Position numbers and translations under genes: made by a program
The notes under the pieces: model-generated
Told to the model about the DNA's origin: nothing
The model's input: only the letters and a program-made list of their open reading frames with translations
The model's database searches: none
In this document: piece by piece, positions 24,428 through 62,833 of the stretch
How the letters are laid out: every line of letters begins with the position of its first letter
Position numbering within the stretch: the first letter of the stretch is position 1
From: a virus
DNA: 64,000 bases
Reading direction: 5' to 3' (one strand)
Virus record (IMG/VR): IMGVR_UViG_3300044640_001517
Coordinates: 26,335-90,334 of that record

Positions 24428-26332
24428 TTAGTACTCGATAGCTGCTGCTGTTGCGCCACCTGTGGTGTCACGGAGTGCTGCTGCAACACCGTTAACCGAG
24501 ATGGTCGATGTGACTACGAGTGACTCGACGCCAACCTTTGCGATTCCTTCGAAGGTTTCAACGAACATCTTGTAGTCGTTGGTTCCCACGAGTGTGGAGT
24601 CGCGGATGATGCCTACGTCCAAGGTGCCACCGTCGAGGAACAAGAATGTTCCTTCTGCAAAGATGTACCAGGTGAACGTGTCTAGGAACTCGTTGAGTGC
24701 TGCAGACGATGACTGTGTGCCGTAGACGTTCAAGTCATGCGAGTAGGTGATCTGAACACCGCGAGCTGCGAGGTATCCATCGATTTCACCAGTTGCATTC
24801 ATTGAGTTGTCGCCAGGCATTGCCAACGTAAGGTCTGCCACCATTGCGTCCTTGATCCAAGCTGGTGCGATTACGCGCAACTTGTGATCTGGGGACAAAC
24901 GATGACGGCTACGCATAGCTACTGCTGCACGACCAACCTGAACGAGGAAGTCACGAGCAACGCCGATAAGGCTTGTTGTCGTAACAGCTGTCGAACCAGA
25001 TGTCAACTTGCCAGCGAGGTACTGCTCGGCCTCACGTGCGTGCTGAACCAAAGCAAGCTCGTTGTGACGAGCAATCAACTCTGGGTAGGCACGTGTCATG
25101 AGGTTGCCGAACTGCAGTTGCAAAGTAACAGCGTCAGTTGCGACTGTTGTTTCTGTTGCTGCAGATACGGTCAAGCTTGACTTTGTTGCTGGGTCTGGGG
25201 AACCTGCTGCATCATTTGCTGCTGTCCAGATGCCAACTGCGTCTCCGTATTCGCTCAGCACTGGCGGAACGATGTAACGGATACCACCGCGGTCTGCCGA
25301 GAATCGTGGAAGCGAGTCGCGGATTGGACGGTCAGTTGATCCAAAACCGAAGATGTCATACTTGACTTCAAACGGTGTTGAGTGACCACCGGAAGCAACG
25401 AGTGCTTCTGGCGACATAACTGCCTTCATCTTTGCGATGTTGCTGTCAGTGTCCTGGGTAAGAACACGTGATTCTGGGTACTTGGTTGTGATCGATGCCA
25501 CGATGTGCTGTTCGCCGTCGCCACCCTTTACACGGCGCAAACCGTGCAAGCGTGAAGCCATAGCTTCTGCAATTTCTTGAGCATCTTTCATTGGTGATCC
25601 GGCCGTGTAACCAGGGATGTCTGCGCCAGCAGTGATTGCCACTGGTGCTGTTTCCTTCTGGCTTGGTTGACGGTCGGCTGGGGCTTGGAATTCTACTTCC
25701 AAGCCTGTGTTGTCTGCCGCGGCAGTCATGGTTGCCTCCTGGGCTTCCTGCTCTTGTGGAGCATTGGTAATTTCTGTTGATGTGCTTGCTTCAGCTTCGG
25801 CTGGCACTTCAATCGCTGCCTCTGCAACTGCTTCTTCCGCGACTGCGGCCTCTACGGTTGCTTCTGGAGCTACTGCTGCTTCAGCTGTTGCTGCTTCTTC
25901 TGTGGTTGAAAGTTCAGATGCTTCGATCACTTCTGTTGATGCTTCCGCCATTGGAGCTGCCTTCTTTTCCTCTTCAGGAGTTTCTGGCTTTTCTTCTTCT
26001 GGCTTCTCTTCTTCCATTGGAGCTGCTGGCATTTCTTCTGCTGGCATCTCTTCTGGAGTCTGATCCATGCTCTCAACTGCTTCACCCTTAACACGCATTG
26101 CGGCTTCGGCTGCACGTGCTGCAAGCTCTTGTGCAAGAGCTTCACGACGCTTAGCTTCACCACGTACCGTGTCGAGCATGTCCGCAAGTTGCGTCATAGC
26201 ATCCACTGTCTGTGCTGTTGGCTCCTGACCCTCAACCGTTTCGAACTCGGTAACGATTTCAGCTTGCAACTCGGCGATTTGGTCGTCGGTCAAGCTATCG
26301 ATCGTGTCGAGCTGTTGTTTGATACGGTCCAC
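24428..26332 (-). CDS. Major capsid protein with an N-terminal scaffold-like region
   Basis: Acidic, coiled N-terminal half, then ALVASGG...RGGIRY...EGTFLFLDGGTLDVGIIRDSTL..TNDY..F.ETFEG. GTG at 26332 is preceded by a GGAGG RBS. Confidence 0.85.
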   Translation of the reverse strand: MDRIKQQLDTIDSLTDDQIAELQAEIVTEFETVEGQEPTAQTVDAMTQLADMLDTVRGEAKRREALAQELAARAAEAAMRVKGEAVESMDQTPEEMPAEEMPAAPMEEEKPEEEKPETPEEEKKAAPMAEASTEVIEASELSTTEEAATAEAAVAPEATVEAAVAEEAVAEAAIEVPAEAEASTSTEITNAPQEQEAQEATMTAAADNTGLEVEFQAPADRQPSQKETAPVAITAGADIPGYTAGSPMKDAQEIAEAMASRLHGLRRVKGGDGEQHIVASITTKYPESRVLTQDTDSNIAKMKAVMSPEALVASGGHSTPFEVKYDIFGFGSTDRPIRDSLPRFSADRGGIRYIVPPVLSEYGDAVGIWTAANDAAGSPDPATKSSLTVSAATETTVATDAVTLQLQFGNLMTRAYPELIARHNELALVQHAREAEQYLAGKLTSGSTAVTTTSLIGVARDFLVQVGRAAVAMRSRHRLSPDHKLRVIAPAWIKDAMVADLTLAMPGDNSMNATGEIDGYLAARGVQITYSHDLNVYGTQSSSAALNEFLDTFTWYIFAEGTFLFLDGGTLDVGIIRDSTLVGTNDYKMFVETFEGIAKVGVESLVVTSTISVNGVAAALRDTTGGATAAAIEY

Positions 26333-26465
26333 TGTCCCTCCTCCGGGATCAGTCACGATAGACCCACTTTAGGTCTATCTGGGGCTTCTGTCCATGGAGA
26401 GGGACTCTTGCACCGATGTGCAGAGGCACTCACCTAGGAATAACAATAACACTAACTAAAATGTC

Positions 26466-29400
26466 TTATGTCAATAATCTCAACAGCTTGCTCATCTCTG
26501 ATGAGACCTCACTCTGAGAATACACGTCTCCGCCAGACTTATAGCTGCGGAGTGACTCGGTGGCGATGTCGGCGTCTTCCTTGCCGATCTTCGCCTCAAC
26601 CTTTGCGATCATGTCGTCGATCAGATCCCTAAGAACTGGCGGCAGGTCACTAAATCGAACCTTCTGTGCCTCTTTACCAAAAGGAAGTGGAAGGTTTGAC
26701 AGGACCTGGCCTAACAACCTTGCTGATTCCCTAACGTTTCCAAGGGCTGTGGCGTCTAAAGCCCCAGAATCAAGGCGGTCGATAAGGCTAATAAGTTGCG
26801 CAGAAGACTTCGCCGCGGCGTCGTAGTCGCCAAGACTTTCGTTATTCTGTGCTTCCTCGAGCTTCTCCATCAGCTGCGCGTTTCCACCTGTTCCAAGGTC
26901 TTGCTTGAGACGTGCGAGCACATCCCTAAACTTTCCCTTTACGTCACGGGGTTGGTTGACGCCAGAGATATATTTCCCAGGTGTATTGGAAACTGCTTCT
27001 GGACTATTCGGTTTCACCGCTGGTAGGGCTGCTAAAAGCCCCTCCTTGGCTGAGGCCACGCGGGCACGGAGTTCTTCGATCTTTCGAGTGTTCTCCGCAG
27101 TTGCGCTTTCCGCAGCTGTTTTCGCAGCCGCTACTCGTGCTTGGATATCGGTAACAACTTCTTCGTCAATGAGACCTGCTGTCTTCCACTGTTCTGGAAC
27201 CAGCTCGGACTTACCAAGTCCTCGCGCCTTCTTGATGATGTGACGGCGAACCGCGGCACGCTTACCTGGCTTTGAACGGCCGTACGCTTGGATCGCGTTC
27301 TTGAGGTCTTCCTCGTTGCGGATTGGATATGAACCATCTGGAAGAGCCTTGCCTTCACTTGCTAGACGCTCACGGGCCGCCTTCGAGATGTATCCGAATG
27401 TCTCATACTCAAAGCTACTGCGTACGCGGTTTGAAAGCTCCAAGGCCTGTGCCGCAAGTTCTGCGTTTTCTTTTCCTTCAAGCTTTGCGATGCGACTTGT
27501 GAGTTCAGCCATTGGATCTACCTTCATCTTTGCAAGTACCTGGGCACCTGCGGCGACGAGAGCGTAGACCTGACCTGATGCAACGCGTGCGCGTGCGATC
27601 GGGAAGCCGGGCACGTTTACCTGACACACAGCAACAAGTTCAAGCGCGCCGTTGATCGGACGCCAGTCACCCGACGGAGCTGATGCACGCAATGCACGAA
27701 TCTGCTCAGGCGTTGCGTTTGGACGAAGCGCACCTGCGACCCAGATGCCGTAGGCATCTTCGCCGGCGTGAACGTCTGCGATCGCTGAACCAGTGTCGTC
27801 ATAGTGGCGGGCGGCTTCTAGTGCGCTGGCCTCAAGTGATGCGTGTCCACCTGCGAGCGTCAGTTGACCGACAGGATAGTCCTTGCCGTCATCTGCGCGA
27901 ACAACACCTGTGTGGAAGTACGCGTAACCTGTGCGACTCTTTGGCGCGCGGGTACCGCTACGCATGCCGATGTGGTCTGTCTGCCACGACGCGATGTGGC
28001 CAAACACTCGGCCAAGATCATCAACTGTAAGTGGTGTAGGTCCGCTAAGTTGCGGATTTACAAACCAGTCAGAAGGTGGAACTGTTGGGATCGCCCCAGC
28101 AAGAATTCCGCAGGCCACGATCGCGGCTGCGTCCATCGGATCCATATCTTCTTCTACGTAGACTCCGTCTGGAATCTGTTCCATATTTCCCTCCTGGGAT
28201 TCTCCAGATGTGTCTGCTACATCCTCCAAGTAGATCTTGCATTCTTCGAATGCAGGCTTTGGAACAATTGTGACAGCCATAACCCTGGCCTTTGTGATTG
28301 TTATTTTATCACCGCCAATTTTCTTCTCTTTTGGAGAATCTGCGGCTTCGTCCTTTGCATCTTCATTTGCCTCAAAACGATCGAGGTCTGCTGATACTCC
28401 GCGTAGGAATCCTTGACGGACCATACGCTCGGCCTCTTTGCCGTATGCGTTTGTGTCAAATACTCCATGCGCATTTCCAATACCGTTCTCGGTACGTTCC
28501 ATCTTGTCAATACGACCTACAACGACAGAGCCATTGTGGCCATCTGCGGTCTTGATCTGCCAGAGTAGAGGCAGCGGCAAGGCACGGACACTGATCGCAT
28601 TTTTCTTAAACTTTCGACCGTCACCTGACTCAGTATCTTCAGGTATGACCAGCGGGATCATGAACTTTGAACCCATCATCGTGTCTTCAGCCGACGCCGT
28701 GAGTACACGATCGCGTGCCTCCTGTGCCTCCGCCTGTCGCACGATTGCGTCAATAACTGCTTCTTCATCGACAAGATCAAAACCACTTGCCTTGATTGAC
28801 TTGGCGTTCTTCTTGCCGACGTTGTACTTGCTGCCAGGCCAGACGCCTGTCGCCTCCTTGTGACGAAGTGCACAGTAGCCCTTGGCTCGTGGACCCATGT
28901 ACTTTGCGAGATGGTGGAAGCAACGCGTCCAGTCGCCTGGCGTGTTCCAGCGGATCTTCAACGCGCCGCGACCAAACAACCAGTAGTGACGTAGCTTCTC
29001 GGCTTTTCCGCGATTACGATCAACTCCACCTGCGGCTGTCAACGAATCAATGTCATCAAGCTCGGCCATGAGCGCCACAACGCCTGCTTCAGGCGCCCAG
29101 TCAGCTTCATAGTTGTCATCTTCGATCGCGTAGATCTCTTCAAGACTTAGGCGCATGTCGTCTTCGGTGACATCTGTTCCAGAGCCGTAACCGACGACAC
29201 CGTCGTGATCTACAAGCTCTGCGTACTCGGCCTTAAAGCCATCTGACGCCTCGGCAGCTGTTAGATACTTCTTGGTCTTTTTCTTCTTGTTTGAACCAAA
29301 GATGTCGTACACAGGCTGCTCAATGATGAACTCATTAACGGATTGATTCTTGCTCTTACCGCCGTGGAGCATCTTCGCGTGTGTTGATGTGTAGATATGA

Positions 29401-31922
29401 AGTGCGTCCTTGTGACGCAACTGGCAATATCCCTTTGCACGTGGGCCCATGTATTTGCCAAGGTGGCGTACACAACGTGACCAGTCACCCGGTAGACCCC
29501 ACTTGATCTTTGCAGCACCGCGTCCGTAGACCCAGTAGCGACGAAGTTTTTCAGCGTTACCGCGGTTCTTATCGAGACCGCCCTGCGCAAACTCTGTTGC
29601 GCTTGCCGTTACATTTACCTTTACAACTCCGTCTGGAATTACAGCAAAACGACACTTACCTTCATCTTCAATCGGCAGAGAGATGATTCGACAGACATCG
29701 TTGTCGTTTTCATCGTGCGTGTAGAAAACGCAGTTTTCACATTTAACGCCGATATCAGCTACCTTGTTCTCAGCCGCTGGCGTGTAACCAGCCCAGATGC
29801 CTGTGCCGTCTTCATTGAACTTGCCGTACTTATCGGCAATCTCAATAAGAGCGCGCATAAGGTCTTGTTCTTCAGCTACGAGAATTCCAGCGGCGGCTAG
29901 CGCATGCAACGCAGACGCGGTTGTTCCGCCGTCGATCTGTGCAAGAACATCGGTATACGCATCTCCGCTAAGCGGAACAACTGGTGGTGGAGTTGCAGAT
30001 GTTAGATCGCTTAGGATACCTTCGTCCGGTACCCACTTCTTATCTGTTCGCTTAAACACCATAGGACGCAGCGAGTCTGTTCCAGCAGGAACAATTGAGA
30101 TCAGGTCAAACACAGCGGACGGATCGTCTGGAGAAACAATCGCCATATACACTGGCTGAACGTCAGAAGTTTCTGGTGTAAGAGGTTTGCCGGGTCCTTT
30201 ATTGGTTAACTTGTACTCATCAGCAACTTGCTTGATCGTCTTCTTCTCTTCTACATCTGCTGATGCTGAAAATCCTGTAGGATTGTAGTACAGGTGATAC
30301 AGCGGATTTTTCTTAAAAAGATCTTTGAATAACGGATGTTCACGGCGATCACCTGTAAACGCTTTTTGGCCGGTAAGTTTTTCACGACCTGCAACATATT
30401 TATCCCAAGAAGCGCTTGTTTCTTCCTTTGTAGGCTGTGTTGGCTTTACAAACGTATTCTGCTGAGCTGACTGTCGTTGTCCGTTTACCCATGCTGGGTA
30501 GTTGTACAAGACCTGTTGTAGGTCTCCAGGTGTTAGCGGAGGAAGTGTACCTGGAATTCGCGCGTTAGGCGAGTTCATCGGAGTTCGTGGTTGACCAAGG
30601 ATTCCAGATGTATCAAGTGGCATGTTGCTTGGTGTGGCGACACCTTCACCGCCAGACCTTGCTGTGTCAGCGACCGCCTGTGTGTCTGTTCCAGCAACCC
30701 GCACAGACTCTCCCGAGTCCATCTTTACTGTTACACTCTGCGTGCCTTTGTCAATCGCGGTGATACGTCCGGTGTTTGCTGGATTGCCGCCAACTGAAAC
30801 ACGTGAACCCATGCGCGCAAACTTTCCACCTTTATCGCGTACTTGTTTCTGCGCGTTTGCCGCACGTTCTTTTGGAGAATAAACGTTGTCTGCTGGATTG
30901 ATCGCGCCTTCTGGACCAGCGGCAACGATCGTGTTGTCGATGATTCCCCAGTCAATGTCTCCGAGCTCAGCGGCCATAAGTTCAGCCTCTTCTGGATATA
31001 GCTCGTAGACACCCGTCTTTTCAAACGGTTGCTGCTGGAATCGCGCTGAAAGAATAAGTGCTGACTCGGCATCAATAGGCACATGCGTCTTCTCAGCCGT
31101 GTCATATATGTCGTCAAGCGCCTTGTCGTATGTTGCGATATCACTGTCAACATGCGCGAGATCGTCCCAACCGCCACCGTCCCAGACGTATGCCTCGCCG
31201 TCTTCATTGATCATGTATAGGCGATCGATAGATCCGTCATCGAGACGAATACGAGCCACAAACTCTGGACCGTTTTCTTGATCTTCTTCGGCAAGTCTAA
31301 ATGCGTTGACGTCGGCGTCGTAACTTGTCGCCATTCCGTAATAGTCATCATCAGCAACGATAAATGCGCCGGCGCTTACAGCCTTCTTGTTTTCGCGTTC
31401 AACGATCTGCTGTGCCCAGCGCCACGCGGCGTCGCCGCCCCAGAGTGCCCAGGCGATGCGACCGTTCGATGGAAATCCGTCTGAGCCTGGCTTGTAGCCT
31501 TTGCCTTTCTTATCTACCTCATGTCGTGGGAAGTACTTTGCGATGTGGCGGACCTTGGCCAGTCCGATCTGTCCGCCGTTGGCGAGTATACGCGCTGTGT
31601 TGAGACCAACAGGCGTTCCACCACGGCGATGCTCCTTACGCCACTCTAAGGCCCTCTTAGCCTCTGCTTGCGCTGCCTTAGGTATCGTGTACATACGTCC
31701 AGAGGCGGTGATTGCACTGATGCGGAGATCAGCCAGCGCGCCAGACGCGAGGTCAAAGTGAACTTGATCTGCTGAAGCTTCTGTATTCCACGGCTGTATA
31801 TACGAGAGGTTGCTTAACGTACCTACCTCGTCGACCATGTTAGTAATTGAGTCAATCACAACGGCAGATGTGCCGTCGGTAAACATCATGTAGCTACCGT
31901 GAGAACCAAAAAGCTTTATCAT
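26466..31922 (-). CDS. Capsid maturation protease fused to multiple accessory domains (1818 aa)
   Basis: Protease core ESGDGR..PLPLLWQ..GHNGSVVVGRI..GVSADLD (~28240-28680) and PSGDWR...LELV...VNVPGFP; extra domains on both sides. Confidence 0.8.
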   Translation of the reverse strand: MIKLFGSHGSYMMFTDGTSAVVIDSITNMVDEVGTLSNLSYIQPWNTEASADQVHFDLASGALADLRISAITASGRMYTIPKAAQAEAKRALEWRKEHRRGGTPVGLNTARILANGGQIGLAKVRHIAKYFPRHEVDKKGKGYKPGSDGFPSNGRIAWALWGGDAAWRWAQQIVERENKKAVSAGAFIVADDDYYGMATSYDADVNAFRLAEEDQENGPEFVARIRLDDGSIDRLYMINEDGEAYVWDGGGWDDLAHVDSDIATYDKALDDIYDTAEKTHVPIDAESALILSARFQQQPFEKTGVYELYPEEAELMAAELGDIDWGIIDNTIVAAGPEGAINPADNVYSPKERAANAQKQVRDKGGKFARMGSRVSVGGNPANTGRITAIDKGTQSVTVKMDSGESVRVAGTDTQAVADTARSGGEGVATPSNMPLDTSGILGQPRTPMNSPNARIPGTLPPLTPGDLQQVLYNYPAWVNGQRQSAQQNTFVKPTQPTKEETSASWDKYVAGREKLTGQKAFTGDRREHPLFKDLFKKNPLYHLYYNPTGFSASADVEEKKTIKQVADEYKLTNKGPGKPLTPETSDVQPVYMAIVSPDDPSAVFDLISIVPAGTDSLRPMVFKRTDKKWVPDEGILSDLTSATPPPVVPLSGDAYTDVLAQIDGGTTASALHALAAAGILVAEEQDLMRALIEIADKYGKFNEDGTGIWAGYTPAAENKVADIGVKCENCVFYTHDENDNDVCRIISLPIEDEGKCRFAVIPDGVVKVNVTASATEFAQGGLDKNRGNAEKLRRYWVYGRGAAKIKWGLPGDWSRCVRHLGKYMGPRAKGYCQLRHKDALHIYTSTHAKMLHGGKSKNQSVNEFIIEQPVYDIFGSNKKKKTKKYLTAAEASDGFKAEYAELVDHDGVVGYGSGTDVTEDDMRLSLEEIYAIEDDNYEADWAPEAGVVALMAELDDIDSLTAAGGVDRNRGKAEKLRHYWLFGRGALKIRWNTPGDWTRCFHHLAKYMGPRAKGYCALRHKEATGVWPGSKYNVGKKNAKSIKASGFDLVDEEAVIDAIVRQAEAQEARDRVLTASAEDTMMGSKFMIPLVIPEDTESGDGRKFKKNAISVRALPLPLLWQIKTADGHNGSVVVGRIDKMERTENGIGNAHGVFDTNAYGKEAERMVRQGFLRGVSADLDRFEANEDAKDEAADSPKEKKIGGDKITITKARVMAVTIVPKPAFEECKIYLEDVADTSGESQEGNMEQIPDGVYVEEDMDPMDAAAIVACGILAGAIPTVPPSDWFVNPQLSGPTPLTVDDLGRVFGHIASWQTDHIGMRSGTRAPKSRTGYAYFHTGVVRADDGKDYPVGQLTLAGGHASLEASALEAARHYDDTGSAIADVHAGEDAYGIWVAGALRPNATPEQIRALRASAPSGDWRPINGALELVAVCQVNVPGFPIARARVASGQVYALVAAGAQVLAKMKVDPMAELTSRIAKLEGKENAELAAQALELSNRVRSSFEYETFGYISKAARERLASEGKALPDGSYPIRNEEDLKNAIQAYGRSKPGKRAAVRRHIIKKARGLGKSELVPEQWKTAGLIDEEVVTDIQARVAAAKTAAESATAENTRKIEELRARVASAKEGLLAALPAVKPNSPEAVSNTPGKYISGVNQPRDVKGKFRDVLARLKQDLGTGGNAQLMEKLEEAQNNESLGDYDAAAKSSAQLISLIDRLDSGALDATALGNVRESARLLGQVLSNLPLPFGKEAQKVRFSDLPPVLRDLIDDMIAKVEAKIGKEDADIATESLRSYKSGGDVYSQSEVSSEMSKLLRLLT

Positions 31923-32654
31923 CTATTTAGCACCTTCATCTGCTTGTACTTTATCTTGTACAGGACCGCCTGCTACCCAGGCATCACATGTACGCGAGGC
32001 CGCACACTTGAAGTCGAAAGCCTCACAATACCCTAGTTCTGCGATGTCGATTGCGTCCCAGGCGTTCTGTTCGCTTGATCCACCCTGCTCCAGTCCCCCA
32101 GCGATGCAGTCACGCATCTGCTTTGTAATAATGAATACCGCGCAGTTTCCGCAGAGGCTTTTCTTCGCGTCATCGATCGTGACAGACCACCTGTCAGCTT
32201 TTGCCTGCCAAAACTCTTCATTTGGCTCTGCCGGATTTAGCGGCCCGTAGCCTGCGGTATCGATCGCGTTCTGACGGTACTTGATGTTTAGCGCAATGTC
32301 CTGGGTGGCTGGAGGGCACTTTGCTGGCGCCGCGGCCGTAAGCGCGTAGTTGTGGTTTCCTTCGTCATCTACCTCGTAGCGTGGTTTTTCGCCTCGCATG
32401 TCAAACGAGTCGTAGTACTTGACGTAATCTACTTCTACTTCATCGATCGTAAACTCGCCGCTGTGATCTTCATAGAACTGGTATGTATCAATCTTGTTCC
32501 ATGTACCGTTGTCGCGCATGAGCAATCCGCCCTTACTTGGACAGGCAAACATGAGATATTGGACGTCGTAGTTATCGTCTACAAGGACGTAAAGATCTTC
32601 ATCTTCTTTGATCTCAGTTGGCCATGTGTCAAGTGCTTTTGTGTCTTCTGCCAT
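31923..32654 (-). CDS. Head-module protein with a Cys-rich C-terminal domain
   Basis: CPPATQD...YGPLNP...CGNC...GYC..FDFKCAASRTCDAW. Confidence 0.7.
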   Translation of the reverse strand: MAEDTKALDTWPTEIKEDEDLYVLVDDNYDVQYLMFACPSKGGLLMRDNGTWNKIDTYQFYEDHSGEFTIDEVEVDYVKYYDSFDMRGEKPRYEVDDEGNHNYALTAAAPAKCPPATQDIALNIKYRQNAIDTAGYGPLNPAEPNEEFWQAKADRWSVTIDDAKKSLCGNCAVFIITKQMRDCIAGGLEQGGSSEQNAWDAIDIAELGYCEAFDFKCAASRTCDAWVAGGPVQDKVQADEGAK

Positions 32655-32669
32655 GTGCTCTTTCCTGTG

Positions 32670-44600: not shown

Positions 44601-47600
44601 ACCTGGATCATCAAGCCGTTCTTGGAATTTTTCTCGCTCTCTTTGCAGTTTTTCTTGACGCGTTGCTTTTGGTTCACGCTTGCCGTTCTTTATCGCAATG
44701 GCCTCTGCGTTTGGCATGTCAGCCTTGACTGCCTCAGCCGCCTCGGCGAGTGTGTCGGTAGTTGCAATCTGCTTGTTGTTACCTTCGCCTAACCAGATGC
44801 CTTTACGCCATACCTCAAACTTGCTCTTTCCATCTTTTTGTACAGCCTCGGTGATGCTGTGATCTTCGCCGTACTCGTCTGCCGGTGGAATGTGCGTCCA
44901 TGCGTTTGCCTCTCCGCCATACATGCCGGCGATACGGATATCCCAGCCTTCTGCGGTTGTGCCTTGCGGAACATCTGCCATCGGCTTGTCCAGGCTCGGG
45001 TCAATAATCCGTTTTCCGTCAGGTCCAAGCTTGTAAATCTCGGGCAGAGGCTCGTACTTGGGTGGTTCAAGTGGAATCAGTTCCCCGTCAGGTCCAAGCT
45101 TGAAATTCTCGTCGGGCCCGCTCCAGATCTGGTCAGGTCGCAATTCTTTGTCGTCGGGGATGTTAGGCAAGTTCTCCCACGGCAGATCATCCCACGCTTC
45201 TGCTGGGATACCATCTGGGGGCTCAGGCCACTTGGTGCGACTGGAAGGCTTAGGAGCAACGATCTTGTCCCACGCAAAGTTCTTGCTGGTGCCGTCTGAG
45301 TCCTTGGCCTTTAGGTTCGTGCGACCTGTCTGTCCGTTCTGCCAGACGCCTTCTGGAGTAACAACGCGGTCCTTGTCGCTATACATGAAGTGGAGCTTTT
45401 GGTCGTTATCAATAGCATCTTGAACAAACTTCTTGATGTCAGCGATCTTGTTGACTTCTTTTGGATTGAGGTCAATGACATTTTCTGCGGCGCTTGGTTG
45501 TACCTCATCTCGCTTAACGTCCCATCCGGCCGGAGCTTCAGGAGTGCTTACACCTGTAACCTTGTCAGCGGTAAATGTGCGACCTTCACCGTCTGTCTCA
45601 CTGAAACCGACGATGTTTGTCTTACCTGTCTTAGGACTTGTATAGATACGTTCTGGTCTAAACGTACGATCTTTTCCACCGTAGCCAAACTTGACAGGAT
45701 ACTGACCGTCGATCGCCTTCTGCATCTGATCAACAACCTCTTCAGGCGTGCTGTCAGGTTTGATAAACTGTGGTGCCTTGCCGCGGTCGGCCTCTGGCAT
45801 CGTGATGATCTTTGCCTTTTCTTTCTTCGCCTCTTTCTTAGGTGAAGGAGCATCCATCTTTGAGATGGTAAACGTGCGCTCTTCGCCGATCGCATGATCA
45901 AATCCAACGAAGTTTGTTTCACCGGTCTTCTTGTTGGTATATGTATTGCCGCTTGGTTGAACCTCGCGATCTTTTCCGTTATACTTAAATCGAAGAACGT
46001 CGCCGTTACGGTACGCTTGCATGACTGCGCCGATCTTTGACATTGACGTGTCACCTGCAAAGTCAACCAGATTGCCCGATGGAGTGGCGTAGCTAGGTAT
46101 GTCGACCATCGCTTTTCCGCCGCCGCGCTCTTCTCCAGTCAGTCTAAATCCATCTTTTTCGGCGTCATAGACCTCGTCTTCGGTGAACCAATATGCGCCG
46201 ACATTTTTTGACGCCATCTTGTATTCTTTTACACCGGTGTCCATCAGCTGTTTGTACGTAAGACCCTTAACGGCATTCTTCATCTTTTCAACATCAAGAA
46301 GAACACGATCTGTCGGGACACCCATTGACTCGAGCTGTGCCGAGTCCATGATGTAGTCCGTTGCGTTATAGTCACCGTCTGTCGCCTTGTCGAGCGCGTT
46401 GCGAAGATTTGACTCTGAACCTGTAAGCTTTACAGATCCGTCGTCTTGAAGTTTGATGTCAACACCAGGTGCAAACTCCTGCTTCCACGCATCAAGACCT
46501 TCTTGAGTTACAGGCTCTCCGTCTGTCTTCCAGTCAACACTGACAGACTTAACGTCTGCCTTTTCAAGCTGCGATGCTGGCTTTTCAAGTTGCGCTTTTT
46601 CTTCAGCTGCGCGCTTGTTTTCTTCATCAGCCATTCGCTGAACAGCAGGAGGCACTGGACCAGGGCGGTCGCCAGGTCCTGTTGTCTCACCCGCCGGCTT
46701 AAACTTATCTTCGCCGATGTCTTCTTGAACAACGTCAACACCCCAGCCACCTTGGCTGAGCAACTTCTGACCTTGCTTGCTGTTGAGAAACTTTTCATAC
46801 TGATCTTGGTCGGTAAGTGCTGTAAGCTCAACAGAGTCCCAACCGTCCGCCATGCCGATCTTTTGGTTTCCAACCGCACGGAATACTGACGCCTTGCGTG
46901 CGCCGGTGATCTCTTGCTGGCCGTCTTTGTTTATTGGGATCTCAACACGGTAACCGTCAGCGCTCATAAACGCGACGTGGTTAGGCTGTGATGCCTGTGT
47001 AGGTGTCCAGCCTGTCGGTGCGTCAAGCTTTCGCATTGACGAGAAGTTGACAGCGTACTTTTGATCTTCGCGAGAGACAGCTACTTCTGGGGTGTCCTTT
47101 AGATACGACTTCTTAATGATCGCCTTTGCGGACTGACCTTTCTTAGCTGGTACAGCGTAGACTCCGTTTGGGATATTTTTATCGTCTTTGATCTCGACTT
47201 CAATGTCATCAACACCTGACATGCCGACAACTTTTCCACTTACGTAGCTGTGTTTGCCAGACTTGAAGATGTTGAATTTCCAGCCACCACCCATGAACGC
47301 AAAACGGCCAAAGCGGTCACGGCGTTGCATACGTGCACGGGCAGAACGCGCCGCACGTGAGTTACCGCCAAGACCAAAGCCAAGTACGGCGATGATCGGT
47401 TCAAGATCAACAGCGGCTGTGATCGGGACAACACCAGGTCCCAATGCCGCGATACGTGCAAACGCGTGCTTGCGCTCAAATGAACCGTGTTCGTACGAGT
47501 GAGCAGACGCGACAAGTGCGCGGATGTCGTCGTCGATGATGAGGTCATCGGCCGCGATCCAACGTGCACGTGCGTGGCGCAACGCCGACGCGGTCATCGC

Positions 47601-47915
47601 GTGCGCGCGTGTCGAGAGCGGGTGACCTACCGAAAGAAGGTCAGAGTTTTCAAGAGAAGAGGTTGACACCTTGTTCTTTGAAGAAAGCGCGATAAAGCCA
47701 GACACGGCGCGTAACGCAGAGAACGCACGTGTTGAGTTGCTGCCGTATACTTCCTTGCGGATCTCACGGTTTGCAACCTCGATCGCCGAAGCGAGCGTTA
47801 CCTGACGTTCTGGTTGAATTGACTTGTTTGCAGTATCAAGCATCGTGATGATGCTTGAGCGAAGACGAAGTAGTTCAGCCGTACTGAGCTGTGTGCGCTT
47901 TTTCTTGTTTGACAT
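32670..47915 (-). CDS. Giant polyvalent protein (5081 aa): 4x WYL, ADP-ribosyltransferase, HipA/PI3K-like kinase, DEDDh exonuclease, UvrD-like helicase, putative second ART
   Basis: WYL-like F.Y..K.R.V.P...G......RTF..DK repeats; LYR...EQEH; GSNQGG..YYVK..E..DAWLSNYD..DN..VDQGG; DYESTG..FD..HRADAD; AGTGKT, DEAQD, VGDENQAIYAFRG, HQAKGLEW, YVAVTRA. Confidence 0.85.
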   Translation of the reverse strand: MSNKKKRTQLSTAELLRLRSSIITMLDTANKSIQPERQVTLASAIEVANREIRKEVYGSNSTRAFSALRAVSGFIALSSKNKVSTSSLENSDLLSVGHPLSTRAHAMTASALRHARARWIAADDLIIDDDIRALVASAHSYEHGSFERKHAFARIAALGPGVVPITAAVDLEPIIAVLGFGLGGNSRAARSARARMQRRDRFGRFAFMGGGWKFNIFKSGKHSYVSGKVVGMSGVDDIEVEIKDDKNIPNGVYAVPAKKGQSAKAIIKKSYLKDTPEVAVSREDQKYAVNFSSMRKLDAPTGWTPTQASQPNHVAFMSADGYRVEIPINKDGQQEITGARKASVFRAVGNQKIGMADGWDSVELTALTDQDQYEKFLNSKQGQKLLSQGGWGVDVVQEDIGEDKFKPAGETTGPGDRPGPVPPAVQRMADEENKRAAEEKAQLEKPASQLEKADVKSVSVDWKTDGEPVTQEGLDAWKQEFAPGVDIKLQDDGSVKLTGSESNLRNALDKATDGDYNATDYIMDSAQLESMGVPTDRVLLDVEKMKNAVKGLTYKQLMDTGVKEYKMASKNVGAYWFTEDEVYDAEKDGFRLTGEERGGGKAMVDIPSYATPSGNLVDFAGDTSMSKIGAVMQAYRNGDVLRFKYNGKDREVQPSGNTYTNKKTGETNFVGFDHAIGEERTFTISKMDAPSPKKEAKKEKAKIITMPEADRGKAPQFIKPDSTPEEVVDQMQKAIDGQYPVKFGYGGKDRTFRPERIYTSPKTGKTNIVGFSETDGEGRTFTADKVTGVSTPEAPAGWDVKRDEVQPSAAENVIDLNPKEVNKIADIKKFVQDAIDNDQKLHFMYSDKDRVVTPEGVWQNGQTGRTNLKAKDSDGTSKNFAWDKIVAPKPSSRTKWPEPPDGIPAEAWDDLPWENLPNIPDDKELRPDQIWSGPDENFKLGPDGELIPLEPPKYEPLPEIYKLGPDGKRIIDPSLDKPMADVPQGTTAEGWDIRIAGMYGGEANAWTHIPPADEYGEDHSITEAVQKDGKSKFEVWRKGIWLGEGNNKQIATTDTLAEAAEAVKADMPNAEAIAIKNGKREPKATRQEKLQREREKFQERLDDPGNWEQKPVGIPTTSYEWTYVGPTPDFDEYPELMQDLLAAREEKGLQSAEDSRPIPDSDERAGAPSRPSAAPAGPAKMEKTKPGQPTLFAEPPEISPEIQRLVDAANDLRDTPTANLPAIIEKSIEEKKDVAFDFNDKLRVVTPEEIVENKAGKKQLKGFSKTDGEDRTFTIDKMNKPAADTNVKVDDIVNMPQDELDRLVDAAWPTPTAATPAYEEKVSEFDRQIADLNRKIETMKNVLNGPDSPDGKLHKRAKSNLDRLQQSKDKLSFDRINNNFEEKPAATTTRRLAVLPEGRSNEDIISEFEEDIPGGKARFTGDAQNGYPVFEFDIPAGEEERFNDWFGEDNIEDFPTGDAVAFAEKYNIPMGDNTELKNGNPGTSFEVDVAFEEGTLDDVLKDFKAKFPEGEADVVVSEGAGGGWPIVDFSVPEGREEDFGKWYNGDLADSDNIAGDLDEPVDENLFGGEPDAEDMGTFNDEAFDSMYTTPEGAYKPNIFEFYKPEGRTNQDSADYTDDPRVLSGKFSEDELVRALRDAVLPSDSGPANGYGNLPFESGDEPVKAEALFEALEQTGMDAGFLLAGIFDSASPDKSKKNQLNYVDTINTPPAGSPSAAIPLSDRLAQTRAAQAINGELGKPENAITAFRLINQHKETNPNIQDLAQELISRGINGLDLSQEGDADAQLARDLDTYLPWAFSESAEEREAFQSYWGLMLSIDGGDSDLEDWQHPGSRAIILDALERLTGGDGGKAMEMYYQLYEDFGGFKDLVDSKKAIADGVDDLESDTPAAGLFRLVAAAKEVSEIPLYRSIGVNANSELFKKYTTPGFVVSFDPRPFTETDLTTGEIGAVGFSPTNPNDVRIVFEVAAGEIDSVSLNGFSWYDQEQEHLGTGEFIVDSVREQPAVLKPGQNEYIITLKRATEDALKKAYGQPTEAEAPEVVEAPEAPTQGTAPREYGDVSDWKRVAGQAGSNQGGVYEDSEGNRYYVKTARSQDHADVETLGSALYRELGIPATDVGLGTRDGALQIISPMIPNATSGMDDYINDPEFLGKLHEGFAIDAWLSNYDVIGMVYDNVVADGDGNPIRVDQGGVLVWRARGSRKEWFGPEVAELDSMRDPGMNPTASDVFGSMTAADIKKSGEKLLNITPSRIDEIVDSIVNSPKENELLKDMLKRRRQSILDQLGIKDTTVDPFAERVPLTESIGYAAQDLQPGDVAEGDSFVIERVFRDQMTPKNKVSVQGYFPGHESQRKEWNETTIIPVARGGTIPPKGDKPALHRPKAPRKPSPGAFTGKMAELLKDAKTWEEAAAIIRKTPIMFFDYESTGLPGPEKGGRNQPVQIGGTFVADGEVRAQFSSYMNPEHELSDWSAKNLKQMDGSPVTDEWLTTQPSMKDAHQQFLDFVKEHAGDEVILGGQYTPFDLEILQRVLSANGLSINIVGTIDSKDLAEGTLPKWNSKTQFGASQVSEKDGKRRASNSLGPVAEFLEVKLPDWHRADADAQASWEITDAMLTRAINNPDTTPTTLLNVDGAFEAKQQEIADYENAYAKYEADLAEYVAAKAIAASWNCGGAGLTAAVGPANGPCSVPSVEQMIREAQPLPIGEIDPDGVAGGSTSNESSMVDAQEIDTPSQDGVDTNDPYKDEQFKPTEEQRAILDAIMEGKNVVVQALAGTGKTATLLLAGKRKKKEAAQERGVYIAFNKSAQLEAEERFRKAGLTNIEVITNDAIATRWAPKDIVKKLDKNPELSYYKDIDKYLGITEFEGPGAQGYGLYEAHKFFMEAMRKYLISADPEIGPQHFDIPEQDVKPWMLDIVNKMWEDYKDPNGKLRMDNTIITKMWALSNPDLGEIGSGLKQAVDFIFFDEAQDINPVSGKVIADQTIQKVYVGDENQAIYAFRGGENQLGKVLGAVEFPLTKSWRFGANIANEGNKWLSMLESPYRVIGGNADPGELVPEESLYDTADAILVRTNSGGLSAIFDQLQRGRTVGVTKNYKNDLVNLTDSAEYLLNGGTGTKPKPMHPELAPFRTWAEVKKEAEDENSNASNKLKLFVGLVETEGIDGIRGLLDQLHLAKSTGAALKSVDIDDTDVGSEGSLGKGVDYTIDENGIGVFGNTFENKSTIAKNGFKWDKSKGQWRLETTNQDTISNVLKKLSVSLNGGVAPAEADAKPIDVFITTVHQAKGLEWDKVLIWTDFWGPRVNKATGEVEMPDPVEFRIAYVAVTRAKKQLGRGALSWIDSFVKQPAEPAPVEEPNAPEVPVPSTEGEGGGGVEEPPAPTPTPSDGGDDNERIIKSVKQAVKDADDTLEDYSDRSSKDEKNIKKFRQAVKDALYAYEGEQYVDAEERFRDAAELLEPYAEVGAGDLQSLMLQAADAADAIRISKLTPKETPAEQPKLDPEWRPDDVPAPLGVVPTGEQQAPDDVAPEQLETTNNNVDMSQVLRYKDDSEKAADLQNAFDDVEKSRDEVTGEDSVLMATDRNKIKKAAEEVRQIREALANGTMTDDQALARLNAIIDSLPTYDIFSERYVDMESFKDMVKAVKRYIDGSAYWRPTGAALPPIDAVDSKGRPAGYAKDGTTFLTPGMRVRTKFGYAGIVEEYEKTWGGVKVRMEIDPRPTEQKGAWGPYVARLAYNTRELTVIGPDEDPYVEITREKGSEKKKPKNLEQQMEIWNKVQAGEIDPKAKKSKAPKGEPPAEGEGGVGVEPPPSPPEGDGGSALPKAEAPEGATEAPDDIPPPPPWNPEVSETPDTTVETGDETPAPEQNAIDPEVMSEMVDSALSDMHATLHDQIRGMSATLVKMPVNETMMSIANVAGRPIVLVNINGVSVPFYASTGSGGKTSVPTNKWYPIFGISPQTSWFNKGFTEEQINNMYDSPELKAVADFLNANLANPLAMVPDIPKAAGEQEYQDLLAAINTDMDTTSGSSAKSAKILKQNIESTVNDIKTPVIRTGWDPTLFRSGDQSTWPRFLLMADGITSRQDVAAAVRHGIEMIFERQEDDVRSQEEINKNAGAYFALLDQAIKENASDMYLGGDFDNSKKMKQLAEDWDFARPSLMNLDMFIDQMLNASTDPQVKKWKDRIQYMDATEESDYRLSLREGARLVTSDKIKLHGKSNSEVTPAGRPPVVIKDPKPISSSGLTGIPSLMEAVSTVVDRPDQYKERGVSAAVDSTDIEDLDIRASTIITPDGERKLRLRFKLTSWRGAEVTQEISSNLGQAGSLFRAEAPQIERVSVAENGDIVLSGESVVNNWGGAVFNNGRMFVSDSEDTGNPWSINIMRANDDNSLEPLDAQYESAPAAFHNQVIIDLPIDAEQSDIEEALRAAGVRDVRAAQQQDTKSLIENRLLSLFDSQTDPNINITDQDRRDKKLEKIKERWGVEAADVFPRIGSHGRIEYMLPDNVAFLMQEDTGIKGFKHNLSLEKAVANLVDTQSRPPTPEELIQVTTNAIVDVVTNGLVATVSRVQEGLNYKGMSSTEDLWTGGADYVFLRPTKHDENSTLEVMGGFNANSEGSIWWPATDIFERSDLYANIDDLYGKRVPGTDILRAVKYEGQEAMVKHGVPITKDAQIVVSQLVRDRAIKMLKERGITEIDGTPIEEIILTAGSKILEDRRGSKDSAKGQLLRFAEENLTEAFTEAGGSETVDFNDLAAMLTYTGSDLHYQPAPAGSVAVAAKYMFTVDMGLDPFEIENTRQLPQIIVRYPDGHYYTHDAGSAGAVLSGDAYVEPMLASDVNVLRNKVAEYNSPFDRQEEEGKVDWLPFSGNHAVTNAGGYDTMLRAEIVIPFGQENAGNPTGEDYADILDRYKLVDEIIKKVAKMKSFEMYSAARGMLLPMYANTRDRNLQSYIMQQLINLTLYTGRTVPPMPVTSAGEEKDTNMLPLPDYDEFAKYGNYLNRAGTQAVLENVDGEYAGWLRAAYSAKIIRDFDDQGLPIRSYMEITTDRDGGLSFQLKENSGFKWDPNKREITFSSRGIMYKIRAIQPDEKLNRIQL

Positions 47916-47917
47916 AT

Positions 47918-49150
47918 CTAGCTTTCGATGTTAGGTAGCAAGTCGGAATCTTGGCTGTCATATGTCATTATGGCAAGTTCGCGCGCACGATCAAATCCGT
48001 GCTCGTTGTTGTCAACTCCACGCTTCCACGCTGCGCGTAGTGCGGGGATGATCTCGTAACCGAGACCGCTGTATTCTGCAAATGCTGTTATTGCGTGTTC
48101 AGGAGATTCGTATTCGTGTGAATCTCCGAGCGTGATGATCAACTCTGTGGCCGCCTGTGCAGCCGCTGTGAGAACTGACTCTGATGCGTTTGACGCTGTT
48201 GACTTTGGGTGACCTTCAGGTAACAAGTCATTGTCTTGCTTGTAGTTTGGATTCGCCGGTGTACCTGACTTGAGTAGACGAAGATATGCGTTTACGCGCG
48301 CCATCGCCCACTGATCACGGGTCTTACCTGGGCGATGTGAGCTCGAGTACGCACCAGCGCCGCGGCGATACACCGCCTTTAACTGTGCAAGTGTTGCTTT
48401 GCGGCCGGCCTTTGCATCTACGTTGTGCTCTTTGACCTTGTTCATCAACGCTGTCTCAGTCTTGGCTGAAAACGTAATGTTGCGTCCACCTGATGCAGAT
48501 CCTTTTGGATTCTTTTTTGATCCCGTGATTCTGTCTTTTTTAGGCGCAGGCTTTGAGGCCGCGGCTAAGAATACAGAATCATCTTCGGTGGCGTAGTCTT
48601 CAGCGCCGTCTTCATAGACGTATACCTCAACCTGCTCTTGCTCTGGCGTTGCGACCAACTTTCCGCCGGTCTGCATTCCGGTGATTGCGCGCAGTTGCCA
48701 TCCCCATTTTTTATGTGCAGCGTCTCGCTCTGCGAGAAGATCTGCAATGCCCTGCTCGTTTGCATCTGATGCGAGCTTAAATGACTCAAGAATACATTCA
48801 TTTAGAATGTTGTTTGCCTGGAGAAGATCTGCGCTCATCAGCACTGGATCGTCAATGCGGTCGTTGTCCATGCTTTCGATCTTTGAGAACGCAGACATGG
48901 CTGACAACGTTGCTGGTGAGTCAAACCCAAGCTTAAGAATACTTTCAGCGATCGGATCAATTGCACCTTGCGCATCTGCGTAGATGTCACCAAACAGATC
49001 ATGAAACTCGGAGAAGTCCGGCCCTTTAACATTCCAATGAAACCCGATCGCCTTTGTGTAAAAAGCAAATGTCGTACCGAGACAGTGACCGAGACTCATT
49101 GCGAGGTTTGCCTTCATCTCGTGTGAATGCTGTGGGTTGTTCATGATCAT
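47918..49150 (-). CDS. Dps/ferritin-like domain fused to additional phage head-associated domains
   Basis: FHWNVKGPDFSEFHDLF...IDPIAE Dps signature; second domain LKAVYRRGAGAYSSSHRPG..RDQWAMARVNAYL. Confidence 0.8.
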   Translation of the reverse strand: MIMNNPQHSHEMKANLAMSLGHCLGTTFAFYTKAIGFHWNVKGPDFSEFHDLFGDIYADAQGAIDPIAESILKLGFDSPATLSAMSAFSKIESMDNDRIDDPVLMSADLLQANNILNECILESFKLASDANEQGIADLLAERDAAHKKWGWQLRAITGMQTGGKLVATPEQEQVEVYVYEDGAEDYATEDDSVFLAAASKPAPKKDRITGSKKNPKGSASGGRNITFSAKTETALMNKVKEHNVDAKAGRKATLAQLKAVYRRGAGAYSSSHRPGKTRDQWAMARVNAYLRLLKSGTPANPNYKQDNDLLPEGHPKSTASNASESVLTAAAQAATELIITLGDSHEYESPEHAITAFAEYSGLGYEIIPALRAAWKRGVDNNEHGFDRARELAIMTYDSQDSDLLPNIES

Positions 49151-49164
49151 TGTTTTCTCTTTTG

Positions 49165-50904
49165 CTATTGAACCGGTGTGATTGCTGTTGGCTGCATCGC
49201 CTCAGCAGGTGACTCTGCTGGTGCTGCTGGTGTCTCTATCGGCGCTGGTACTTCTTCAACAGGTGCGGGTGTCTCAACCGGTGGCGGAGTTCCCTGCAGC
49301 ATCTGCTGTACCTCAGGCGGAATCGGCGCAATGCTTGACGCCTGCTGTGCACCCTTTGTCGCCTCCATCACCTCGGGCGCAACCGCGGCGATCATCGCCT
49401 CCGTAAGCTCTGGAGTGATCGCACCCTTTTCAATGAGCAGGCGTAGCGCAAGTTCATTTGGTGTAGGTGCATCAGCCTCGCTGAATCCGTGCGCACGACG
49501 CCATGTATCAAACGACACCGCCATGCGATCAAATCCACTGTCAGCGTCGAGTGCGCGGTCGTTGCGTGTTGCAACCTGTGATGGGTCGTACCAGATCGTG
49601 AGGCGATTAACCTCTGCCTCGTCAAATCCGTTTGCGAGCAGATATGGACGCAGATACACAACGGTGAGCGCGTCTGCAATGAGAAGCATCAACGGCTCGA
49701 TGTGTGCCTTGTACAGTGACTCGTCGATCTGCAGAGCGTTTGAGTACTTGACGTTTGCAAGACCTGTGACGACGTCCTTTGGAACATCAAGACCTTGCAA
49801 GATACGCTCGAGAACACGATCAGCACGCTGTGCGAGTGCGGGGTCAAACGAACGTTCAAACTTAAACTGCTTGATCTTGTCGCCAAGTTCAGCAGGTCCA
49901 CGGATGATCAACGGAACAACCGCAGATGCGGAGTCCTCGTCACGAATTGGCGTTGTCATCGCATCGATGAGTTGATCTTCAAATGCGTCCATCGCCTCTT
50001 CAGGGTTATACTCAGGATTGATGTCACCCATCTCGTCGAACGGATAGTCCGCGTCAGGACCGGCGGCGACACTGAGACCGTCAGGAAGATAGAGCGCGCC
50101 TGCGTTTAAGCGCGAGCGTGCGGTTGCACGGAACGTGCGGTTCAACAGCAGAAGTTCTGCGCAGAGATCGAGCAGACCGCGTAGTGACGAATCAGCCTCT
50201 TCAGAGAAGCGAGGATGCGCGCGCCAGATGCGACCGATAAACGCGTTCTGTGGAAGAGCGACGACACCCTTGTTGTTTTGACTGGCGATGCTGTTGCCAC
50301 CCATCAAGATGTCGCGACGACCGACGATTCCGTAGTTGTTCTTCGAGTCAACCTGAACCTCATCTGTTGAGCGGATGTCCCATGACTCTGGAACGCCTGT
50401 GCCCTTGCGCTCTGGCATCTGCACGAGGTAGCATTCGCCGGCGACGGCGATGTTCAACGCGGCGTCTCGGAGAAGTCCAGCCTGTCCGCCGTATGCGGAG
50501 TCTAGTCGTGCGAGAGCTCGCTCTGCGGCCGACGCAAGTCGTCCGCTGACAAGACTCGACGATCGAACCGATACAGGTGTTTCTGCCGGGTTCTCGACGA
50601 CAGCAGCATACAGACGTATACGACTAACAACGGAAGCAACCAGATTAAATGCATACTTGATCTCTCCAATCGCATCGTAGTATTCCCAAGCCTCGGCCTG
50701 CCACGCACTGGACGAAGCCGAACGGCGATGACGGAACTGTTCCGCCTCATCTTTATTTTCAACCCTGACCTGGGCGGCCGCCGCTGTAAGTGCTCTTGGA
50801 GTTCCCCAGATCGCTGATTCCGCGTACGAAAAGCCAGAAGGTAGCACGCCTGCAGGACGGACAACGCGCTTGACATTGCCTACATCACGACGAAAAACTG
50901 CCAC
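49165..50904 (-). CDS. Portal protein
   Basis: WQAEAWEYYDAIGEIKYA..VSRIRLYAA...SAVVP...GLDVP, an actinophage portal pattern; position near the terminase. Confidence 0.85.
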   Translation of the reverse strand: MAVFRRDVGNVKRVVRPAGVLPSGFSYAESAIWGTPRALTAAAAQVRVENKDEAEQFRHRRSASSSAWQAEAWEYYDAIGEIKYAFNLVASVVSRIRLYAAVVENPAETPVSVRSSSLVSGRLASAAERALARLDSAYGGQAGLLRDAALNIAVAGECYLVQMPERKGTGVPESWDIRSTDEVQVDSKNNYGIVGRRDILMGGNSIASQNNKGVVALPQNAFIGRIWRAHPRFSEEADSSLRGLLDLCAELLLLNRTFRATARSRLNAGALYLPDGLSVAAGPDADYPFDEMGDINPEYNPEEAMDAFEDQLIDAMTTPIRDEDSASAVVPLIIRGPAELGDKIKQFKFERSFDPALAQRADRVLERILQGLDVPKDVVTGLANVKYSNALQIDESLYKAHIEPLMLLIADALTVVYLRPYLLANGFDEAEVNRLTIWYDPSQVATRNDRALDADSGFDRMAVSFDTWRRAHGFSEADAPTPNELALRLLIEKGAITPELTEAMIAAVAPEVMEATKGAQQASSIAPIPPEVQQMLQGTPPPVETPAPVEEVPAPIETPAAPAESPAEAMQPTAITPVQ

Positions 50905-62472: not shown

Positions 62473-62542
62473 CGTTCGCCTTTCGTCGTAGGTTATGTGA
62501 TCATTATACGTTCACAGGTTTCTTGCCGCGGCTTGACGGGGA

Positions 62543-62737
62543 TTACTCCCCGCCTTCCTCCCGCGCCCACTTCATCGATTCGATGTGACCGCGGCCGGAC
62601 GCGGTGTGTTCGATCCAATATCCGAACTCGGATTCGGACAACGTTTCCTTGGCCTCGGCCAACTCCGACTCCGAACACTCCAACTCGATATATGGGGATG
62701 TTTGGAATGATGAATACTTCCATTCGATTGTTACCAT
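62543..62737 (-). CDS. Small acidic protein
   Basis: 64 aa; promoter motif at 62767-62783 and ACGACGAACGGAG leader. Confidence 0.6.
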   Translation of the reverse strand: MVTIEWKYSSFQTSPYIELECSESELAEAKETLSESEFGYWIEHTASGRGHIESMKWAREEGGE

Positions 62738-62791
62738 CGTTTACTCCGTTCGTCGTTGATGAGACCATTTTACGATCTCCGGTTCGGAGGA

Positions 62792-62833
62792 TCCGACTCC
62801 GACTCCGACTCCGACTCCGACTCCGACTCCGAC
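62792..62833. repeat. (TCCGAC)7 tandem repeat between divergent promoters
   Basis: Seven perfect 6-bp copies. Confidence 0.95.

Follow-up and report, generated by a model that had tools for sequence, protein, structure and literature searches.

A short alanine-centred motif shared by the head proteins of an actinobacteriophage lineage: a candidate prohead protease cleavage site

The window analysed here is a stretch of 64,000 nucleotides (nt) of viral DNA (positions 26,335 to 90,334 of IMG/VR record IMGVR_UViG_3300044640_001517), and comes from a virus contig of 90,334 bases with a completeness rating of 68%. The head and tail genes are all on the minus strand of the window, to which the window coordinates below refer. 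From the portal to the major capsid protein, six head proteins carry copies of a short motif, hydrophobic-(T/V)-A-(A/S)-(G/A); one of these proteins is 5,081 amino acids (aa) long (the giant) and another is a protease-like protein of 1,818 aa. The recurrence of the motif raises two questions: (i) whether it is a shared signal of the head proteins or a by-product of their composition and descent, and (ii) whether a prohead protease cuts at it, and if so into what products. A preliminary description of this DNA had proposed a cleavage code common to the head module, with the giant open reading frames (ORFs) as polyproteins that are cut into separate effectors. We put the probability at about 0.7 that the motif is the substrate recognition site of the phage's own S78/HK97-type prohead serine protease, the core of which would be at about aa 1085-1262 of the 1,818-aa protein.

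A motif restricted to head proteins

Matches were counted with the strict expression [LIVM][TV]A[AS][AG]. All 16 instances listed in the preliminary description were found on the minus strand, to within about 10 nt. The pattern given there fits 13 of the 16, with FLAAAS, ITAAV and LTAAV falling outside it, and one strict match, LVAAA at aa 1895 of the giant, was not on its list. Overall, the six head proteins (8,773 aa) contain 14 strict matches versus 0.84 expected from whole-protein shuffles: six in the protease protein, three in the giant, two in the capsid protein and one each in the portal, a Dps fusion protein and a 243-aa protein. The 36 other ORFs examined have a single match, in a 1147-aa tape-measure-like protein. 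Shuffles within blocks of 20, 30 or 50 residues, which preserve local Ala content, gave means of 0.90-0.97 and maxima of 5-6, and none of 2000 reached 14. The head-module enrichment thus survives correction for composition.

Because the expression was defined after looking at the window, the window numbers are post hoc, and because it was chosen on the window, the relatives are the real test. In four whole contigs (G000, G001, G003 and G005), the head modules, comprising 25 ORFs from portal to capsid, have 45 matches versus 2.85 expected, and the remaining 508 ORFs have 18 versus 14.8. We also identified 80 IMG/VR loci by their capsids (best-segment capsid identity to the window of 57-86%). 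At these loci the ORFs upstream of the capsid contain 243 matches versus 13.0 expected and the capsids 190 versus 15.6; the downstream ORFs contain 28 versus 25.4. In phages DSL-LC01, Pumpernickel, Atuin, GMA2 and Phendrix, the motif is present in head-module proteins, and the few stray matches in tail proteins are near expectation. The one gap is the Atuin portal, which has LTSSA instead. The claim of a shared code is supported in this respect: the motif is limited to the head module in the four contigs, and the pattern is replicated in the 80 loci and in cultured relatives.

The relatives are homologous, so sequence counts overstate the number of independent events. As far as sequences can speak, the evidential weight in the relatives is in the persistence of the motif down to best-segment identities of 34%, in its shifting linker positions, and in its occurrence in proteins for which no mutual similarity was detected (portal, post-portal proteins, giant, small Cys-rich protein, protease protein and capsid).

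The motif could have no shared function, and instead be a by-product of Ala-rich linkers and of segments inherited by descent. Ala makes up 12-16% of four of the six head proteins, the expression was chosen after inspection and the relatives share ancestry, as this explanation would have it. However, the local shuffles never reproduced the window count, and shuffled capsid linkers gave 4.2 matches versus the 87 observed (see below). Among the 120 possible orderings of the five residue classes, scored on the head modules of the four genomes, the real order ranks first, with 45 matches versus a median of 3, and the runners-up are overlapping variants of it. The motif is also found at non-orthologous positions of dissimilar proteins. 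HK97's own portal, protease and capsid have zero matches; the motif is therefore a trait of this lineage and not of all S78 systems. We consider the by-product explanation extremely improbable. Exact 3- and 4-mer enrichment in the four genomes places LTAA, TAAA, LVAS and TASA in the top 15 four-mers, in a test that is unclean and dominated by blocks shared through descent. The consensus derived from 128 distinct sites is [AP]-[LVIM]-[TV]-A-[AS]-[GA], with no acidic residue.

Sites at domain boundaries of the capsid, portal and giant proteins

The major capsid protein precursor (642 aa; 24428..26356; NCBIfam MCP_Sipho, E 4e-102; PHROG 777, E 1.1e-82) was aligned with its homologues, giving 65 distinct capsids. 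In the alignment, the delta-like domain (aa 9-95) is conserved, the acidic linker after it (aa 95-205) is variable, and the shell is conserved from aa 225. Between the linker and the shell is a near-invariant island, E-A-[PT]-[VM]-T-A-A-A, that is followed by ten variable residues; the window site here is MTAAA (aa 210-214; 25715-25729). Position 210 is V, M or L, T211 is present in 64 of the 65 sequences and A212 in all of them, and position 213 is A in 61 and S in 4. The linkers have 87 strict matches versus the 4.2 expected from linker composition. At least one is present in 61 of the 65 sequences, and the remaining four have VTAAV or LVAAT. Subsets of the capsids have additional linker sites at five other alignment columns, which indicates site turnover. 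The same boundary has AMAASA in Gordonia phages, VTAST in Atuin and ITAST in Orion.

A second capsid site, LVASG (aa 319-323; 25388-25402), is invariant and lies within the conserved part of the protein. Orion and GMA2 also have LVASGG at this position, which is where cluster B capsids begin to show BLAST similarity. The sequence may be a buried structural element. Alternatively, it may be a true final cut that leaves a 320-residue shell protein. A PDB sequence search with the capsid alignment profile returned no match.

In the portal (579 aa; 49165..50904; PHROG 776 portal, E 1e-105), the candidate site is LTAAA at aa 39-43 (50776-50790). Across nine aligned portals this is the junction of a length-variable leader with the conserved body, and PRxLTA[AS] is present in eight of them, with the LTSSA of Atuin as the exception. 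The Dps fusion is a 410-aa protein (47918..49150) that combines ferritin/Dps (Pfam Ferritin, aa 24-155, E 2.9e-11) with DUF5824 (aa 240-304, E 1.3e-8). It has a degenerate site, FLAAAS (aa 194-199; 48554-48571), and a strict site, LTAAA (aa 327-331; 48158-48172). By eye, and between proteins that were not aligned, its FLAAASKP looks like VTAAASKP in the post-portal protein of G001. The fusion may be a true polyprotein. The 243-aa protein (31923..32654) is Cys-rich and has the site LTAAA at aa 105-109 (32328-32342); Pfam, PHROG and NCBIfam scans identified no family match for it. A 239-aa protein in the same gene position of G001 has a comparable site at aa 101.

The giant gene encodes several enzymatic domains in one polypeptide and is sited between the portal and the protease. 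Its N-terminal pro-region (about aa 1-190; 47346..47915) contains the conserved sites MTASA (aa 107; 47583-47597), LVASA (aa 134; 47502-47516), ITAAV (aa 165; 47409-47423) and IIAVL (aa 174; 47382-47396), all of which are ahead of a conserved GGNS..QRRDRFGRF domain that begins at aa 183. The module made up of the pro-region and this domain (aa 1-380; GGNS..QRRDRxGRF across homologues) has no Pfam or PHROG name. The body (32670..47345) includes an RNase T-like exonuclease (about aa 2417-2600; E 2e-4, below cut-off) and a UvrD-type helicase (about aa 2750-3325; UvrD helicase, E 2.2e-13; PHROG helicase, E 2.1e-80). The LVAAA at aa 1895 (42219-42233) was treated as a chance match, since two homologues do not conserve it. 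LTAAV at aa 2671 (39891-39905), in a Cys..Cys loop after the exonuclease region and before that of the helicase, is partly conserved: DSL-LC01 has LTAAG at this position and G001 lacks the motif, and a single internal cut here is possible.

Homologues of the giant have the same distribution. Among 52 distinct homologous N-termini, the pro-region has 68 strict matches versus 2.1 expected, and the body as fetched (39,082 aa) has 1 versus 1.7. A profile search of 1.84 billion representatives with the N-terminal module identified 636 proteins at E <= 0.001, so that the module occurs in at least 636 protein clusters at 50% identity. In each of the best 150 of these 636 matches, the module is near the N-terminus (match starts at residue 1-40), and the proteins are 248 to 7,004 aa in length. 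Residues 1-220 of the 150 contain 196 strict matches versus 5.2 expected, and residues 221 to the end contain 22 versus 21.6. At least one core site is present in the pro-region of 120 of the 122 representatives with a recognisable anchor, and the sites are grouped roughly 85, 58 and 22 residues ahead of the anchor. In Pumpernickel gp82 and locus L181, the same conserved domain is preceded by a leader of just 12-20 residues and a site. Similarly, the motif is 12-21 residues from the N-terminus in Phendrix gp66, gp69 and gp70 and in GMA2 Orf11.

Given that the motif is confined to its front and is at chance level in its body, the giant looks like one cargo protein with a removable front, and it probably loses a propeptide of about 180 residues instead of being diced. 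For the 5,081-aa protein, the conserved sites of which are all in the first ~180 residues, the proposal of giant polyproteins that are processed into individual effectors therefore does not hold. It stays plausible for the protease protein and for the Dps fusion.

In GMA2 (L106, 7981-10632), aa 741-865 of the head-module protein Orf10 have weak, below-cut-off matches to anti-CBASS Acb1 (E 7.9e-4) and to the 2H phosphoesterase superfamily. Because it directly follows a motif at aa 713, this C-terminal part may be a packaged anti-defence module.

Overall, the homologues carry the sites as conserved islands in variable linkers, at domain boundaries and with shifts in position. Sites stand right before domains, as the preliminary description had noted: they are found ahead of the capsid shell, the portal body, the first conserved domain of the giant and the protease core. 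Such a pattern also bears on the idea that the motif is a docking or assembly signal, bound but uncut: a short linear peptide that would attach head proteins to the scaffold-like delta domain, the portal or the protease and so bring them into the prohead. A docking signal would likewise be expected to be conserved and confined to head proteins, and a concentration in the pro-region of the giant is the pattern of a targeting sequence. Invariant copies in folded conserved blocks (capsid aa 319 and protease protein aa 1455) would need no cut. However, several copies per linker, together with positional turnover, suit the degradation of a propeptide better than a single contact. Sites are exactly at the variable-to-conserved junction and also follow leaders of only 12-21 residues, as in the cleaved leaders of phage SPN3US that are described in the accessible part of the report on it (PMC10052503), and six copies are in the protease-like gene itself. 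On balance, we regard a docking role as unlikely.

The protease protein and the candidate enzyme

Within the head module, PHROG 18402 and a weak Pfam S78 match point to a maturation protease gene that lies after the portal and before the capsid. The 1,818-aa protein that it encodes (26466..31922) has six motif sites versus 0.22 expected and is plausibly a true polyprotein. The sites are ITASG at aa 71 (31698-31712), IVAAG at aa 332 (30915-30929), VTASA at aa 771 (29598-29612), LTAAG at aa 961 (29028-29042), LTASA at aa 1074 (28689-28703) and LVAAG at aa 1455 (27546-27560). Site 71 is ahead of a phrog_2859 domain, and sites 771 and 961 are each ahead of one copy of an 82-residue phrog_6439 domain (aa 781-845 and aa 966-1028). 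Sites 332, 961 and 1074 are islands or are at the N-terminal edge of conserved blocks. Specifically, site 1074 is 11 residues ahead of the conserved protease core; in Atuin, where the protease is a separate gene, the pre-core site is about 18 residues further upstream. Site 1455 is in an invariant block that closes the protease region. The segment at about aa 680-960 (29000-29880) is an insertion that is missing from most of 33 aligned homologues and holds the second phrog_6439 copy.

The S78-like core, at about aa 1085-1262 (28137-28670), is the most likely enzyme. Its His1129 (28536-28538) and Ser1177 (28392-28394) are 48 residues apart and invariant in 31 of 31 homologues. Pfam Peptidase_S78 matches aa 1128-1231 (E 0.0044 with the full-length protein, and 0.0013 when aa 955-1818 are scored alone) and is matched in 20 of the 31 homologues (E <= 0.1; best 3.2e-4). 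A local alignment places Ser1177 opposite Ser114 of HK97 gp4, the catalytic residues of which we take to be His65 and Ser114, with a score of 35 that is no better than that of shuffles (31.9, standard deviation 5.4). Following the core is a second strongly conserved domain (about aa 1250-1485; 27468-28175), which ends in two tandem motif-like copies, RVASG and LVAAG. The match to the head maturation protease family PHROG 18402 (aa 1280-1472; E 3.2e-56) falls in this second domain. A comparison of the core with the second domain gave no sign of duplication.

The motif could also be cut by a different enzyme, namely the second domain (aa 1250-1482), an HslV-like protein encoded elsewhere in the window (59321-59935), or a host peptidase that prefers small residues. 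The sites of signal peptidase, Ala-x-Ala, likewise have small residues at the cut. The genes annotated as head maturation protease in GMA2 and Phendrix match the second domain only (window aa 1249-1482), with the S78-like core unmatched. The protein at 59321-59935 (204 aa, beginning MTTII) has 64% identity to a DSL-LC01 protein annotated as protease subunit HslV. However, the gene for this protein is outside the head module and it has no Pfam match at E <= 0.01, and a host peptidase would leave the restriction to head proteins unexplained. In addition, the S78-like core has the invariant His and Ser, and the site upstream of it is kept across relatives. We judge cutting by a different enzyme to be very unlikely.

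Several points weigh against the reading in which the phage's S78-like core cuts the motif. The S78 (PF04586) match scores 17.6 bits with the full-length protein and 19.3 bits with aa 955-1818, both below the Pfam gathering cut-off of 21. Comparison by hhalign of the protease-region alignment, and of each domain singly, with HK97 gp4 gave probabilities of 0.1-5%, which are not significant. A PDB sequence search with the protease-region profile returned just ribosomal protein S6, at E 0.11, and no related solved structure. The strong PHROG label and the GMA2 and Phendrix genes concern the second domain, so that either of the two domains may be the catalytic one. The strict sites at capsid aa 319 and protease protein aa 1455, and the core-only sites at portal aa 88 and capsid aa 285, are inside fully conserved blocks; conservation is uninformative at these four because the whole blocks are conserved, and a cut there might do harm. 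The bond cut is probably that after the invariant Ala, an assignment made by pure analogy with assemblin. Our literature search for this clade found neither a described motif nor virion proteomics, and no protein-level evidence of a cut in the window or in any relative. The shared ancestry of the relatives, noted above, is a further point on this side.

With these points weighed, we infer that the motif is cut, by the S78-like enzyme and at the Ala bond, in proteins that are packaged in the prohead; all of the cuts would take place within the assembled prohead. In the capsid precursor, the protease would cut at aa 210-214, with loss of the delta domain and acidic linker, and it would trim about 40 residues off the portal. 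It would degrade the ~180-residue pro-region of the giant at three to four sites, and a single intact protein of about 4,900 aa would be left, beginning immediately ahead of the GGNS..RDRFGRF domain. The 243-aa protein would be cut, as would the Dps fusion between its modules. Finally, the protease would cut its own polyprotein into up to seven pieces, and one of these cuts would be of the release type, at the invariant ARARVASGQVYALVAAGA block with which the protease region closes.

Genome setting, known systems and implications

Downward from about 55 kilobases (kb), the gene order on the minus strand is large terminase (Pfam Terminase_6N, E 7.3e-22), portal, Dps fusion, giant, 243-aa protein, protease protein, capsid and tail genes. 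Based on gene order (tape measure, tail assembly chaperones), we take the phages of this group to be siphovirus-like, with genomes of about 115-195 kb. The closest GenBank record is the uncultured Actinomycetia phage DSL-LC01 (capsid identity 82%). Capsid identity is 54% for Microbacterium phages such as Pumpernickel and 47-50% for Arthrobacter and Gordonia phages, and cluster B mycobacteriophages are distant. A very large ORF is present between portal and protease in DSL-LC01 and in the Microbacterium, Arthrobacter, Gordonia and cluster B relatives alike. On either side of the large terminase gene are genes for a peptidoglycan-binding domain protein (53051-53497; E 3.8e-14) and a class I methyltransferase (54979-55764; E 4.6e-12). 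The 291-aa gene after the capsid was considered as a cluster B 'pentamer protein', and similarity was not found (E 0.47). Close to the start of an ORF at 62493-62870 is a stretch of Ser-Arg repeats; the ORF has just 0.8% Ala and may not be a genuine gene.

In phage T4, the prohead protease gp21 recognises L/I-x-E, and a short N-terminal leader directs small internal proteins into the prohead and is then removed. phiKZ gp175 is a prohead protease of the same giant-phage kind as gp245 of SPN3US. The short leader plus site that we propose for Pumpernickel gp82, for Phendrix gp66, gp69 and gp70 and for GMA2 Orf11 is like that of T4. In contrast to the small cargo of T4, the cargo here would reach 5,081 aa in the window, and in relatives up to 7,004 aa. 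The motif does not end in Glu, as the L/I-x-E or A/S/G-x-E motifs of the T4/phiKZ/SPN3US type do; it is one motif, common to all six of the unrelated head proteins and not enriched elsewhere.

According to the accessible part of the SPN3US report, gp245 cuts 14 AXE sites in nine head proteins, including the portal, the capsid and ejection proteins; N-terminal propeptides of 20-254 residues are cut several times, and gp245 removes its own C-terminal propeptide (PMC10052503). The lineage described here would be similar in having one protease, one short motif across many head proteins, multi-copy N-terminal propeptides and self-cutting, in our case as read from sequence alone. The specificities differ: A-x-E is cut after Glu in SPN3US, whereas the motif here has no acidic residue. 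A further difference is that the hosts here are Actinobacteria and the protease is embedded in a polyprotein of 1,500-1,970 aa.

The folds of HK97-type phage proteases and of assemblin are related. As with HK97 gp4, the protease gene is just upstream of a delta-domain capsid gene, and its product has a weak Pfam S78 match over the invariant His and Ser. Unlike in the case of HK97 gp4, the score is under the family cut-off and the window protein is eight times longer; the head proteins of HK97 are also without the motif. For pseudorabies virus assemblin, the sites YLQA-T and VQA-S are given in the portion of the report available (PMC4498786). Hydrophobic-x-Ala followed by Ser, Thr or Ala describes both these and the capsid site (n=65), which fits as a pattern only. 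Also like assemblin, the protease has a scaffold-like C-terminal part fused downstream of it, and the protease region closes with a site. Unlike in assemblin, P2 here is T/V instead of Q/N/K.

Polyvalent phage proteins are giant enzymes of several domains whose genes lie among those of the virion and which are presumed to be delivered together with the DNA, and assemblin-like peptidases are fused to some of them, with processing supposed, as set out in the available sections of the study that described them (Iyer et al. 2017, PMC5512222). A cleavage motif and a shared N-terminal pro-region are not given in those sections (PMC5512222), and the giant here, in contrast, seems to be one piece after removal of its front.

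A broader and more tentative idea, to which we give less credence, is that the N-terminal module of the giants is a clade-wide, portable loading-and-release tag. In such a scheme, a site-studded pro-region of about 200 residues plus the GGNS..RDRxGRF domain would pack single enzymes of 2,000-7,000 residues into the capsid, where they would be freed by one protease that had retained, from an ancestor in common with herpesvirus assemblin, its hydrophobic-x-Ala|Ser specificity.

The accessible part of a preprint on actinobacteriophage capsids states that the point of cleavage separating the delta domain from the mature capsid protein was not predictable (bioRxiv 10.1101/2022.09.09.507160). If the motif is the cut site, mature ends become predictable for the capsid, portal and internal proteins of this clade, which covers many cultured SEA-PHAGES isolates (of Microbacterium, Arthrobacter and Gordonia) and probably the cluster B mycobacteriophages too. 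It would also provide a concrete picture of how giant head-encoded enzymes (among them exonucleases and helicases, and possibly anti-defence domains) come to be in the capsid: as a single piece, after loss of a front tag. Foreign proteins might also be loaded into phage heads with the motif as a portable tag. More broadly, the likeness to herpesvirus sites would connect substrate specificity, beyond the fold, across the HK97 lineage.

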